Numbered from the stretch's first letter, positions 59,150 to 64,000 are shown. The stretch: 64,000 nucleotides of DNA from Escherichia coli (GCF_003334405.1 NZ_QOWM01000004.1), one strand, 5' to 3'. Program-made: numbers and translations. Notes: generated from the letters alone by a model not told the origin.

Positions 59150-59976
59150 GAAGATTCTTCTGGCTGGTCGCTGCCGCTCTGTTATTGGCAGGGTGTGCAG
59201 GCGAAAAAGGCATTGTCGAGAAAGAGGGATATCAGCTTGATACCCGACGCCAGGCGCAGGCGGCGTATCCGCGCATTAAAGTGCTGGTGATCCACTACAC
59301 CGCAGATGATTTTGATAGCTCGCTGGCGACACTGACCGATAAGCAGGTCAGCTCGCATTATCTGGTCCCTGCGGTACCACCGCGATACAACGGTAAACCG
59401 CGCATCTGGCAACTGGTGCCGGAACAAGAACTGGCCTGGCATGCGGGGATTAGCGCCTGGCGCGGGGCAACGCGCCTTAACGACACCTCTATTGGCATTG
59501 AGCTGGAAAACCGTGGCTGGCAAAAATCGGCCGGAGTGAAATATTTTGCCCCGTTTGAACCGGCACAGATTCAGGCGCTTATTCCACTGGCGAAAGATAT
59601 TATTGCCCGTTATCACATCAAGCCGGAAAACGTAGTGGCACATGCGGATATCGCACCGCAGCGCAAAGACGATCCGGGGCCATTATTTCCCTGGCAGCAA
59701 CTGGCGCAGCAGGGGATTGGTGCCTGGCCGGATGCGCAGCGGGTTAACTTTTACCTTGCCGGGCGCGCGCCGCACACACCGGTAGATACCGCGTCATTGC
59801 TGGAGCTTTTGGCGCGCTACGGTTATGACGTTAAACCTGATATGACACCGCGCGAGCAGCGGCGCGTGATTATGGCATTCCAGATGCATTTCCGCCCGAC
59901 GTTATATAACGGCGAAGCGGATGCAGAAACTCAGGCGATTGCCGAAGCATTGCTGGAGAAATACGGGCAGGATTAG
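59146..59976 (+). CDS. amiD: N-acetylmuramoyl-L-alanine amidase AmiD (lipoprotein, amidase_2 type)
   Basis: ORF track 59146..59976, 276 aa, lipobox LLAGC; start overlaps the ybjQ stop (ATGA). Confidence 0.92.
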
Positions 59977-60986
59977 CGCGGCAGTTTTCCGTGGTCGCGT
60001 AGCCAGGCGGCAGTTTTCTCGATACCTTCATCCAGGGTGATGACCGGCTGATAACCTAACTCTTCCTGCGCACGCGTAATATCCAGCGTAAAGTCAAAAT
60101 TCAACTTGGAGACGCCGTAGTGGGTCAGCGGCGGCTCTTTTGCTGACTTGCGGCCTAAACGCTCCATGCTGCGGGCGATCATATCCAGCATCGGGTAGGG
60201 GACGGAACGAATACGACAGTCAATATTCAACTCGTCGATCAGCTTCTGCACGATGCTGCGCAGTGTGCGATGCTCGCCGTTGGTGATGTTGTACACACGC
60301 CCGGAAGGTAGCTTATCGCAGGCTTCCTGGCTTGCCAGCCACATTGCGTGCACGGCATTTTCATAGTAGGTCATATCGACCAGCGCACTGCCGCCATGCG
60401 GTAACAGAATACTGCCGTAGTGGTGCATCATATGCGCCAGACGGGGAATAAAGACTTTATCGTGCGGTCCGAACAGACTTTGTGGGCGCAGAATAGTAAA
60501 GCGCGTTTGTGGATTCGCCTGCGAAAGCATATTGATCACTTCTTCGCTGGCTGCTTTGCTGCGGGCAAACTCGTTGGCGAAGCGGTGAGGGCGAAAATCT
60601 TCTTTAATATCGCGATGGTGGTGATAATCGAAGTACAGGGAGGGGGAAGAGATATGAATAAAGTTACGCACACCCCAGGCGACAGCCCATTCACCCAGGC
60701 GGCGAGTGGCGCGAACGTTAGCCAGATCGAAAGCCTGTTGTGTCCCCCAGGGTGAGGTAAAGCTGGAGCAGTGCCACAGCGTATCAATGCCCGCGAGCAT
60801 CACTTTAGCTTGTGATGAAACCAGCTCGGTCAGATCCGCCGGAACAAACTCTGCGCCCATTTTTTCCAGCAATTTGCCCATTGCCTCGTTGCGACCGGTC
60901 GCTCGCACGCTGATGCCTTTCTGGCATAAAAACTCTACCGCGTTTCGACCTAAGCCGCTGGTGGCGCCGGTAACCAGTACCTTCAT
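59973..60986 (-). CDS. ybjS: NAD(P)-dependent epimerase/dehydratase-family protein YbjS
   Basis: Known N-terminus [15 protein letters not shown] (Rossmann GxxGxxG) at the ATG at 60984-60986, 337 aa; track ORF 59973..61049. Confidence 0.88.
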
Positions 60987-61084
60987 ATCAATCCACTGTT
61001 GTTGAGAAAATAACGTGCGCATTCTTCCGTGATTTCCCCCATGATGCAATGGGAAACATGAAAGAATAACGCAGGTTTTGTCGA

Positions 61085-62515
61085 TTAATCTGTGCTTTGT
61101 TCTGCCAGTCTGGCGATTTGTTTTGCCATTCCGCGAAAAATAAACAGATGCGCGGGGATCATCAATAACCAGTAAAACAGCCCCGGCATACCGTGCGGAT
61201 GCCAGAAAGCGCGGACATCGATAGTACGATAGTCGCCTTTATCTTCCAGGCTAAAACACAGTCGTCCCAGCCCCGGCGCTTTCATGCCAAATAACAACGT
61301 AAGTTGTTTTTCCGGTTCAACGACAATCACTTTCCAGCTATCCACCGCATCGCCAGTCTGTAAATATTCGCGCTCCGGGCGGCCTTTCGCCAGCTTATGA
61401 CCGATCGCGCGGTCCATCAACGCCCGTGTCTGCCACAAAATATTGCCAAAGAAATAACGCTCTTTACCGCCGATTTGGTTCACTACCTGCCATAAAGCAG
61501 CAAGGCTGGCGGACGTTTTAACGGTAAACCCCGCCTGTTTGGCAAAATAACCGTACTCCGGTCGCCAGCGGGCAAAGGCCTGAGCGTCGTAGCCCCAGTC
61601 GCTGGAGTTGACCAGTTTTTCCTCCTCTTTCAACGTGCTACGTACCGCGTCATCGAAAGCGATCAGCCGTTGTGGGATGAGTGCACGTAGCGCGGTATCA
61701 TCCGCCAGCAGATCGTGTTTCAGCCCCTGAATCAACGCCCTGGCGGTGGTGGGCGGTACGGAAGTAATCACATTGAGAAACCACACCGAAATCCAGCGGG
61801 TGGGGAGGGGGATGGGGATCAACCAGCGGCGCTTACCGCTCACCGCCATAAAATGTTCAAACTGTTGCTGATAACTGAGCACCTCTCGTCCGGCGGCTTC
61901 GAAGATGCGGTGTTCGCTGGCCGGATGATCTAACAACGCAACCAGATAGTGCAGCAAGTTTTCCAGCGCAATGGGCGTGGTGCGTGAACGAACCCAGCGC
62001 GGAGGCGTTAAGACTGGCAGGTTGTAGACCATATCGCGCATGACTTCGAACGCCGCGGAACCTGCGCCAACGATAATTCCGGCCCGCAGTTCGGTCACGG
62101 GTACATTCGCTTCACGCAGAATGTCCGCCGTAGCCTGACGAGCACGCAGATGATCCGACTGCTCATGTGGCGGGGCCTGCAACGAACTAAGAAAGATTAA
62201 TTGCTTAACTGGTACTTCACGTAGCGCATCGCGGACGTTGAGAGCCACCTGGCGCTCCTGAGCGATAAAATCGCCGCCTTCGCCCATGCTGTGCACCAGA
62301 AAATAGACCGTATCGATATCCTGCAACAGGGCCGGTAGGTTATCCGGCCAGCTGAGATCGACTTTATGGCAACTGACGTTTGCCAGTTGCAGCTTTGCAA
62401 GCCTGTCGACATGACGTGCCGCCGCCAGGATCTGATGCCCTTGCTGGCTGAGTGTGCGCACCAGATGCTGACCAATGTAGCCACTGGCACCGAGAACTAA
62501 AATGCGTTGCGGCAC
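61085..62515 (-). CDS. ybjT: Uncharacterised NAD(P)-binding protein YbjT
   Basis: In-frame GTG at 62513-62515 gives (M)[17 protein letters not shown]..., 476 aa; track ORF 61085..62590 runs into the ltaE 3' end. Confidence 0.82.
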
Positions 62516-62525
62516 GTCTCTCTCC

Positions 62526-63527
62526 TTAACGCGCCAGGAATGCACGCCAGTGGGCGGCGACTTCCGCCAGTTGTTCGCGCGAGACGTCAAGATGCGTCAC
62601 CAGGCGGACAATCGGCGAGGCGTTAATCAGCACGTTTCTCGCTTTCATGTATTCGCCTAACGCGGCAGCATTTTCTTCCCCGACGCGAACAAACAGCATA
62701 TTGGTGTCCTGACGCATCACATCCGCGCCTGCTTCACGCAGCTGCTCCGCCATCCAGGCAGCGTTGTCGTGGTCTTCCTGCAAGCGCGCAACGTTATTTT
62801 TCAGGGCATATATCCCGGCGGCAGCCAGAATGCCGGACTGGCGCATCCCGCCACCTGTCATTTTCCGCCAGCGAATGGCACGTTTAATGTAATCACGATT
62901 ACCGACGAGTAATGAACCGACTGGCGTCCCAAGACCTTTCGACAGGCAAATGGTGAACGAATCACAATATTGCGTGATCTCTTTCAGTTCGCAGCCGTAA
63001 GCCACCACGGCATTAAAGATGCGCGCACCGTCAACATGCAGCGCCAGATTGCGCTCGCGGGTAAATTCCCATGCTTCTTTCAGGTATTCCCGCGGCAACA
63101 CTTTGCCGTTGTGGGTGTTTTCCAGACTGAGTAATTTGGTGCGGGCGAAATGGATATCGTCGGGTTTGATTTTCATCGCCACTTTATCCAGCGGTAGCGT
63201 GCCGTCGGCAGCCGCGTCTATGGGTTGCGGTTGAATACTGCCCAGCACCGCCGCGCCACCGGCTTCAAACAGATAGTTATGCGCGGCCTGACCGACAATA
63301 TACTCTTCGCCGCGTTCGCAGTGACTGAGCAGAGCGACCAGGTTGGCCTGAGTGCCGGTAGGCAGAAAAATGGCGGCTTCTTTACCGGAAAGCTCTGCTG
63401 CGTAGTCCTGCAGAGCATTAACGGTAGGGTCGTCTCCGTAAACGTCGTCCCCAACCGGGGCGGCCATCATCGCTTCGAGCATGGCGCGGCTTGGTCGGGT
63501 AACGGTATCACTGCGTAAATCAATCAT
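62526..63527 (-). CDS. ltaE: Low-specificity L-threonine aldolase LtaE
   Basis: ORF track 62526..63527 (-), 333 aa, [40 protein letters not shown]... Confidence 0.93.
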
Positions 63528-63563
63528 GGCATGTCCTTATTATGACGGGAAATGCCACCCTTT

Positions 63564-64000
63564 TTACCTTAGCCAGTTTGTTTTCGCCAGTTCGATCACT
63601 TCATCACCGCGTCCGCTGATGATTGCGCGCAGCATATACAGGCTGAAACCTTTGGCCTGTTCGAGTTTGATCTGCGGTGGAATGGCTAACTCTTCTTTGG
63701 CGACCACCACATCCACCAACACCGGACCGTCGATGGAGAAGGCGCGTTGCAGGGCTTCATCAACTTCAGACGCTTTTTCTACACGGATACCCGTAATGCC
63801 GCACGCTTCGGCAATGCGGGCAAAGTTTGTGTCGTGTAGTTCGGTGCCGTCAGTCAAATAGCCACCAGCTTTCATCTCCATCGCCACAAAGCCCAGCACG
63901 CTGTTGTTAAAGACGACAATTTTCACTGGCAGTTTCATCTGCACTACTGAGAGGAAATCGCCCATCAACATGCTAAAACCGCCATCGCCGCACATGGCGA
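63564..64000 (-). CDS. poxB: Pyruvate oxidase PoxB (C-terminal part only; gene continues past the window end)
   Basis: ORF track 63564..63995 (-) matches the PoxB C-terminus (...[16 protein letters not shown]); the reading frame stays open to position 64000. Confidence 0.9.

Follow-up and report, generated by a model that had tools for sequence, protein, structure and literature searches.

The genes poxB, ltaE, ybjT and ybjS lie in this order of transcription on the minus strand of a 64,000-nucleotide stretch of Escherichia coli DNA (GCF_003334405.1 NZ_QOWM01000004.1), the whole of which is called the window here and in which all coordinates are counted. It is likely, in our view, that they make up a core cluster of E. 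coli K-12 with nested transcription, and that its last two genes encode short-chain dehydrogenase/reductase (SDR) proteins, YbjT and YbjS, that are devoid of the catalytic Tyr of SDR enzymes. Both carry generic names of SDR oxidoreductases or epimerases, yet neither has this Tyr, which calls for caution towards functions assigned by name, such as sugar epimerase or dehydrogenase. What the analysis brings is thus a refinement of the annotation of two E. coli y-genes (the motif losses, the assignment of DUF2867 to SRPBCC proteins and the cassette ancestry of YbjS), and no new type of system.

The cluster belongs to the core genome, since at least 80% of window 59900-64000, which is 100% identical to E. 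coli K-12 MG1655, is found in 5,424 of 5,426 complete RefSeq E. coli genomes; by overall presence the count is 5,425. The list of open reading frames (ORFs), and RefSeq for the identical MG1655 sequence, put the four genes on the minus strand: the 3' part of poxB, encoding the ubiquinone-dependent pyruvate oxidase and cut by the window end (63564..>64000), ltaE for the low-specificity L-threonine aldolase of 333 residues (62526..63527; NCBIfam NF007825, 711.7 bits for a cut-off of 312), ybjT with a GTG start and 476 residues (61085..62515), and ybjS with 337 residues (59973..60986), an extended SDR of the 3β-HSD/NSDHL/OleD-like branch on the basis of Pfam, NCBIfam and PDB matches. The poxB-ltaE-ybjT arrangement is already known, as a catalogued K-12 transcription unit of annotated core genes.

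Co-transcription of poxB, ltaE and ybjT from the σS-dependent poxB promoter is likewise on record. A RegulonDB-derived table lists the transcription units poxB and poxB-ltaE-ybjT, ybjS not being included (PMC6469107), and the poxB operon with ltaE and ybjT has been described as conserved in enterobacteria, with a σS-dependent start site mapped 27 nucleotides upstream of the poxB ATG (PMC2759082). A second start, located in the poxB-ltaE gap, is also documented for transcription of ltaE-ybjT: the 'ybjT' promoter of Reg-Seq has its start site at MG1655 909,320 on the reverse strand (taken from Mendoza-Vargas 2009 and labelled 'part of operon with poxB'). Reg-Seq detected footprints of RNA polymerase there, at -36..-30 and -18..-9, and no sites for regulators. 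Converted by means of the poxB start site (911,076, 27 nucleotides before the ATG) and the poxB length (1719 nucleotides), this coordinate corresponds to window position 63553, 11 nucleotides past the poxB stop codon and 26 nucleotides ahead of the ltaE ATG. The internal ltaE-ybjT promoter (63553..63589, minus strand) starts at an A (63553) and comprises a -10-like TAAAAA (63566..63561) overlapping the poxB stop codon and a -35-like TGGCGA (63589..63584), both coinciding with the Reg-Seq footprint positions. A start site in this place therefore implies nested units, poxB(-ltaE-ybjT) and ltaE-ybjT.

The intergenic gaps measure 36 nucleotides between poxB and ltaE and 10 nucleotides between ltaE and ybjT. 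No terminator-like site was found by a simple scan of the coding strand between poxB, ltaE and ybjT, and the 36-nucleotide gap folds no better than its shuffles (z -0.67). A preliminary description of the window had noted that ltaE follows poxB on the same strand, as the ORF list and RefSeq confirm, and had suggested one transcript for the three genes. Co-transcription is upheld by RegulonDB, by the published operon (PMC2759082) and by the scan, which returned nothing between ltaE and ybjT resembling the independent terminators that the description had named as evidence against an operon, but the notion of a single unit has to give way to nested ones in view of the start site mapped upstream of ltaE.

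The junction of ltaE and ybjT (62516..62528, minus strand) consists of the ltaE stop codon TAA (62528..62526) and the 10-nucleotide spacer GGAGAGAGAC (62525..62516), followed by the ybjT GTG (62515..62513), the distance being the one described before. The Shine-Dalgarno motif AAGGAG (62527..62522) overlaps the ltaE stop and lies 6 nucleotides upstream of the GTG, and ybjT is translated from its own start codon by way of this motif. Klebsiella, Salmonella, Citrobacter and [Enterobacter] lignolyticus show the same TAAGGAG..GTG layout, with 9-10 nucleotides between ltaE and ybjT; in Yersinia the ends of ltaE and ybjT share 4 nucleotides, and in another Enterobacterales genome (L010) they are 88 nucleotides apart. 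The ybjT frame is open for 25 codons 5' of the GTG (window 62516-62590, the 3' end of ltaE). A longer, TTG-initiated ybjT ORF of 501 residues was considered and rejected, as RefSeq and 42 diverse homologues place the start a few residues before the first β-strand.

In-frame LtaE-YbjT fusions of 806-814 residues occur in a few E. coli assemblies, as singletons produced by at least five different indels. One of them results from a 13-nucleotide deletion between CTGGCG repeats (62545-62550 and 62532-62537), and this junction, the only one tested, is absent from the 5,426 complete RefSeq E. coli genomes, so that the fusions are taken as rare variants or assembly errors. On the same grounds (singletons, diverse indels, absence of the tested junction from complete genomes), their use as Rosetta-stone evidence of functional coupling was rejected.

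How, then, is ybjS transcribed? This gene had been described as separately oriented, which is not the case: it lies on the minus strand like ybjT, 98 nucleotides downstream of it, and the convergent gene is amiD, on the plus strand (59146-59976). Cross-genus alignments of the ybjT-ybjS gap reveal a conserved promoter-like block (61005..61072, minus strand), made of a -35 TTGCAT (61049..61044), a 17-nucleotide spacer and a -10 AAGAAT (61026..61021), and flanked by an imperfect inverted repeat (61072..61060 / 61028..61017) and by TTATTTTCT at 61013..61005. Five Enterobacteriaceae align over a longer common block in this gap, and a comparison of four genera (E. coli, Yersinia, Serratia and L010) finds no change in ATTGCAT and AAGAATG, which are separated by a fixed 17 nucleotides of varying sequence. 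From this alignment, we infer that ybjS would be driven mainly by its own promoter, TTGCAT-17 nucleotides-AAGAAT, with a start expected near 61014. In a literature data set, ybjS is listed alone in the predicted CpxR regulon, with a 2.3-fold induction. No experimental 5' or 3' end was found for the gap.

The alternative is that ybjS is the fourth gene of a poxB-ltaE-ybjT-ybjS operon, expressed mainly by read-through, the block acting as an attenuator or partial terminator. Such an arrangement would fit the common strand and the gap of only 87-161 nucleotides seen in all eight loci that carry both ybjT and ybjS, as well as the folding of the E. coli gap RNA (-30.6 kcal/mol, z -2.4) into an imperfect, terminator-like hairpin with a U-tract, which can also be read by eye, without folding, in Klebsiella, where the inner stem has two compensatory changes. 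The simple scan of the coding strand after ybjT returned no intrinsic terminator. The hairpin is not conserved, its inner stem being lost in Salmonella and Citrobacter and the whole of it being absent in Yersinia, whereas the invariant elements are exactly two hexamers at 17-nucleotide spacing; the databases give poxB-ltaE-ybjT without ybjS, and ybjS responds separately in the Cpx data set. Read-through as the main source of ybjS transcripts is therefore considered unlikely.

The second part of the finding concerns the proteins. YbjT combines an atypical SDR Rossmann domain (residues 1 to about 254), a helical linker (about 255-320) and a C-terminal DUF2867/SRPBCC domain (326-475; 61540..61088, minus strand). 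Pfam places NAD_binding_10, Epimerase and NmrA matches at the N-terminus and DUF2867 at 332-463, and residues 9-15 (GASGYIG) form a GxxGxxG loop. When aligned to 9g83_P, the Y..K of the latter is replaced in YbjT by H122-L-R-A-R126 (codons at 62138..62152, minus strand), HxxxR thus standing in the place of the SDR YxxxK. Across 43 diverse family members, position 122 is His in 39, R126 and R34 are present in all 43, G9 and G12 are invariant and S120 nearly so; where SDRs usually have their catalytic Ser, the family consensus (YLGGL) has Gly. A CDD subgroup typified by YbjT, which we take to be called SDR_a2, presumably has the same HxxxR. The architecture of about 480 residues is widespread, with 771 clusters (50% identity) at E <=1e-30.

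A search of the PDB with the YbjT family profile returned 9g83_P (E 8e-27), then dozens of mitochondrial NDUFA9 entries, then KstA11 and SimC7. Structure prediction, proposed as a check in the preliminary description, was run for YbjT and gave a confident AlphaFold2 model (pLDDT 91.4, pTM 0.89), whose top Foldseek match, and the best fold match for residues 1-254, is again 9g83 chain P, the NDUFA9-like subunit of an alphaproteobacterial respiratory supercomplex. The C-terminal domain is SRPBCC/Bet v 1-like by fold comparison only: the helix-grip fold β-α-α-β(n)-long α is present, and the DUF2867 profile found no match in a PDB sequence search even at an E of 10. Longer family members carry additional Polyketide_cyc/Polyketide_cyc2, TspO, lipocalin, SOUL, PNPOx or second-SDR domains, the theme of which is hydrophobic or tetrapyrrole ligands. 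The most hydrophobic 19-residue segment of YbjT reaches only 1.5 on the Kyte-Doolittle scale and corresponds to the standard C-terminal helix of the SRPBCC fold; this helix probably prompted the membrane predictions made for YbjT. An integral membrane protein was accordingly rejected, the hydrophobic helices being packed within confidently modelled globular domains, and peripheral association is possible.

Large-scale studies have reported tethering of YbjT to the inner membrane and predicted links to the Rff/Rfb envelope pathways, and, for YbjT or its family, toxicity on overexpression in at least 10 conditions, a Salmonella mutant that is attenuated in mice, depletion of ybjT guides in MOPS minimal medium and, in Paraburkholderia, a phenotype in rhizosphere colonisation. 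A substrate is defined in none of them.

As a general rule among SDR proteins, a basic residue after β2 selects NADP(H). Such a residue is present in YbjT (R34) and in YbjS (R32), and both are for this reason predicted to bind NADP(H). YbjT would do so via the invariant Arg34, its SRPBCC pocket may hold a hydrophobic, probably membrane-derived small molecule (a lipid, an isoprenoid/quinone or a tetrapyrrole-like compound), and the pocket molecule might be presented to the nicotinamide and reduced by a non-canonical, His/Arg-assisted route. That YbjT may be a genuine reductase has the balance slightly in its favour, and a role as a non-catalytic binder or sensor is a tentative second possibility.

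YbjS is matched in Pfam by Epimerase (2.4e-29) and 3Beta_HSD (6e-17). Its best NCBIfam model is OleD (NF042422), followed by HpnA and SdmB, with 137 bits for a cut-off of 580, which is thus not reached, and its best solved relative is human NSDHL (6jkg). Both proteins had been credited with an N-terminal GxxGxxG motif. This holds for YbjT but not for YbjS, whose loop TGATSGLG is a GxxxGxG, with Ser at the middle Gly position of TGxxGxxG. Phe occupies the position of the catalytic Tyr in F140-A-R-S-K144 (codons at 60555..60569, minus strand), and this FxxxK aligns with the YxxxK of solved enzymes in four independent alignments, with NSDHL, the Bacillus cereus UDP-glucuronate 4-epimerase BcUGAepi, MoeE5 and 9g83_P. 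YbjS even scores higher against 6zlj, an engineered Y149F epimerase mutant, than against the wild type. The 10 orthologues compared, which range from Yersinia to E. coli, all keep F140 and K144, and among 120 orthologue clusters position 140 is F with few exceptions (L twice, C once, Y once as a singleton, and one unreadable). With HxxxR in YbjT and FxxxK in YbjS, neither of which contains the SDR catalytic Tyr, presenting the two proteins as Rossmann folds with GxxGxxG overstates how ordinary they are as dehydrogenases. Their description as two uncharacterised NAD(P)-binding proteins stands, the literature search having returned no dedicated study of either.

The YbjS proteins of E. coli and Yersinia share 73% identity. 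The ratio of non-synonymous to synonymous substitution rates (dN/dS) between E. coli and Klebsiella is 0.049 for ybjS, 0.085 for ltaE and 0.104 for ybjT: ybjS is the most constrained of the three genes, under strong purifying selection and not decaying. Proteomics has detected the protein, and it is counted among the obligate substrates of GroE. YbjS would still bind NADP(H) without being a classical Tyr-dependent dehydrogenase; it may transfer hydride with Lys alone or with assistance from the substrate, or it may be a partner, possibly of YbjT, that binds a nucleotide or ligand without catalysis. Whether it would be catalytically non-canonical or redox-inactive while remaining functional is evenly balanced in our estimate.

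The origin of YbjS can be traced through relatives that keep the Tyr. A tblastn search of plasmid records retrieved sequences 36-50% identical to YbjS in Ralstonia, Burkholderia, Pseudomonas, Ketogulonicigenium, Paenibacillus and one E. coli strain (KE48), in which the gene lies between narI and purU. All six relatives examined within this identity range have Tyr at the position of residue 140; WP_001304426.1 is a Tyr-bearing paralogue. The loop TGATSGLG is common to YbjS and to the KE48 (L014) and Burkholderia (L015) relatives, the other four having TGxTGxLG. Five of the six, which are 36-49% identical to YbjS, are annotated (L013, L014, L016-L018; the Burkholderia record has no annotation), and all five are located between a KAS III-type gene and a metallo-β-lactamase (MBL)-fold hydrolase gene, accompanied in four of them by an F390-synthetase-like gene. 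The cassettes of E. coli KE48 (L014 5997-12878) and Ralstonia add genes for a PAP2 phosphatase, a sterol-desaturase-family protein and an acyl-CoA desaturase, and the narI-purU cluster comprises seven genes. Conserved across Proteobacteria and Paenibacillus, this cassette looks like a lipid-type biosynthetic pathway; a literature search on the KAS III/SDR/MBL/F390 cassette and on DUF2867 found no useful paper. No Enterobacterales locus that was read has the KAS III and MBL-hydrolase flanks next to ybjS. Since the relatives in the cassette keep the Tyr, YbjS is seen as a displaced copy of the cassette ketoreductase-type SDR that has lost it, and the comparison shows that it descends from this SDR and sits outside the cassette. 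YbjT has a clear, predicted domain of the hydrophobic-ligand type, and the Tyr-bearing relatives of YbjS belong to a biosynthetic cassette that is defined but uncharacterised.

Two records labelled as plasmids in PLSDB carry chromosomal-type genes: the 5.37 Mb CP125156.1 of K. pneumoniae contains the core genes hcr-poxB-ltaE...art, and the 385 kb NZ_CP141085.1 of E. coli KE48 contains narGHJI and purU. Both appear to be chromosomal sequence filed as plasmid.

Does the neighbourhood of ybjT reflect a common pathway or common expression? The poxB-ltaE-ybjT arrangement is kept in Klebsiella, Salmonella, Citrobacter, [E.] lignolyticus, Yersinia and L010. In Serratia (L008 1658-5339), four genes, some of them on the opposite strand (encoding a NanE-like epimerase, a PTS EIIBC, an RpiR-type regulator and a DUF1294 protein), separate ltaE from ybjT, and ybjT and ybjS are still adjacent. 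One genome, whose YbjT is 58% identical, has the order hcp-hcr-ybjT-amiD, without poxB, ltaE and ybjS. Overall, ybjT and ybjS are adjacent in 8 of the 9 Enterobacterales loci examined, that is in every locus carrying both, always on the same strand. As they stay together where ltaE and ybjT are split, poxB and ltaE are regarded as dispensable neighbours, and, as the linkage is broken in Serratia and in the genome with ybjT only, shared expression is preferred over one pathway: the neighbourhood most likely reflects shared σS-dependent, stationary-phase regulation.

A more specific proposal sees ybjT and ybjS as a conserved two-gene module of Tyr-less SDRs, in which YbjS, a pseudo-reductase derived from a ketoreductase of the KAS III cassette, would now sense NADP(H) or a ligand in partnership with YbjT or perform non-canonical Lys/His chemistry, and the SRPBCC domain of YbjT would capture a membrane lipid, an isoprenoid or a quinone in stationary phase or under envelope stress. 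As a complete scenario, it is quite unlikely to be right.

Shared σS-dependent expression has also to be weighed against a metabolic operon, in which the aldehyde that LtaE releases, along with glycine, from β-hydroxy-α-amino acids would be reduced by YbjT at the expense of NADPH, perhaps with the help of YbjS. The 10-nucleotide or overlapping ltaE-ybjT junctions of E. coli, Klebsiella, Salmonella, Citrobacter and Yersinia, the ltaE-proximal start site common to both genes and the rare natural in-frame fusions would all suit this scheme. However, ltaE and ybjT are four genes apart in Serratia, with some of the intervening genes on the opposite strand, one relative has ybjT without ltaE, and YbjT does not possess the Ser-Tyr-Lys triad of SDR aldehyde reductases. 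Distant YbjT homologues never adjoin an aldolase gene in the loci read, their neighbours (a NiFe hydrogenase, a TetR regulator, B12-binding/Fur/ABC genes) including no recurring partner, and the fusions, scattered singletons whose tested junction is missing from complete genomes, lend little to the scheme. A metabolic operon is thus very unlikely.

A further proposal makes YbjT a quinone-handling partner of PoxB, with an NDUFA9-like NADPH domain and a Coq10-like pocket that deliver or reduce ubiquinone at the membrane. The closest solved SDR relatives are indeed the NDUFA9 subunits of complex I, located beside the quinone site, ybjT is co-transcribed with the gene of a ubiquinone-dependent enzyme, and YbjT is reported to be tethered to the inner membrane. 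These arguments are met by the existence of one related genome and many distant taxa in which ybjT occurs and poxB does not accompany it, by the position of the Coq10 homologue, only at rank 56 among the SRPBCC matches, and by the low maximal hydropathy of YbjT, reached in the standard C-terminal SRPBCC helix of a confident model. A dedicated partnership with PoxB is consequently held to be highly improbable.

That YbjS, and possibly YbjT, would be evolutionary remnants without activity or function can hardly be right. The loss of the catalytic Tyr and of the ancestral cassette partners of YbjS would suit this view, as would the deposited structures of related enzymes in which Tyr was changed to Phe by engineering and a substrate or analogue is bound (6zlj, 8rdi, 2c5a, 6wj9), since such mutants would be essentially inactive. 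However, the dN/dS values of ybjS and ybjT, the integrity of the genes in essentially all E. coli, the YbjS identity maintained as far as Yersinia, the detection of the YbjS protein and the ybjT phenotypes in large screens all speak against decay.

Several points weigh against the picture of a nested core cluster ending in two Tyr-less SDRs. The operon is taken from cited databases and papers, and the putative promoter of ybjS is proposed from conservation alone; the same block can be predicted to fold into a terminator-like hairpin overlapping the hexamers, so that it reads as a candidate promoter and as a candidate terminator alike. Triad-less SDRs can be fully active, as SimC7 is, and NDUFA9 and NmrA-type proteins are non-catalytic, so that the sequence by itself would leave both roles open to YbjT. 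A few of the YbjS orthologue clusters have Leu, Cys or Tyr at position 140. YbjT has been reported at the inner membrane and near the Rff/Rfb pathways, two points on which the model is neutral, and, with unrelated genes beside the distant YbjT homologues, genomic context gives no pathway.

At its other end, the cluster meets amiD, the stop codons of the convergent amiD (plus strand) and ybjS (minus strand) overlapping by 4 nucleotides (TTAG, 59973..59976), according to the sequence and the ORF list. With such an overlap, terminators have no space between the two genes. Klebsiella, Salmonella, Citrobacter and L010 share it, and amiD-ybjS is listed as a convergent excludon (PMC12288877). On the far side of amiD, ybjQ (58826-59149) and amiD (59146-59976) overlap by 4 nucleotides as well (ATGA, 59146-59149), which is a usual sign of translational coupling. 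An Rfam scan of the 59-64 kb region gave zero RNA family matches; elsewhere in the window, matches above the gathering score are the small RNA RybB (42209-42287, minus strand), naRNA4 (54985-55065, plus strand) and two ES036 elements (53963-54005, plus strand, and 11870-11912, minus strand).

As for known systems, the RegulonDB/EcoCyc unit poxB-ltaE-ybjT of E. coli K-12 is the same as the one described here in sequence, gene order, strand and junctions, without any difference; what is added is a comparison between genera and the finding that ybjS lies on the same strand, behind a conserved promoter-like block of its own. The NDUFA9/39-kDa subunit of complex I, an atypical SDR that carries bound NADPH, including 9g83 chain P, has the Rossmann domain and glycine loop in common with YbjT 1-254. 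It differs in the Y..K of 9g83_P, where YbjT has HxxxR, in its length of about 330-400 residues without extra domains, where YbjT has 476 residues and an SRPBCC domain, and in its setting, as no complex-I (nuo) gene lies beside ybjT. E. coli complex I is not known to have an NDUFA9-type subunit. The C-terminus of YbjT belongs with the SRPBCC superfamily (START/Bet v 1/polyketide aromatase-cyclase/PYR-PYL) without a sequence-level match to its solved members, and 3oh8 has its domains in the reverse order of those of YbjT. The polyketide ketoreductase SimC7, KstA11 (triad-less and active) and the NmrA-type SDRs (non-catalytic) count among the solved proteins most closely related to the SDR domain of YbjT, and none of them has its HxxxR together with an SRPBCC domain. 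Finally, OleD and the NSDHL/3β-HSD extended SDRs are the best NCBIfam and PDB matches of YbjS and align over its full length; OleD adjoins OleA, just as the YbjS relatives adjoin a KAS III-type condensing enzyme, whereas YbjS itself stands apart from OleD by its score far below the cut-off, by the replacement of the catalytic Tyr with Phe, and by its neighbours, which are ybjT and amiD instead of oleA/B/C.

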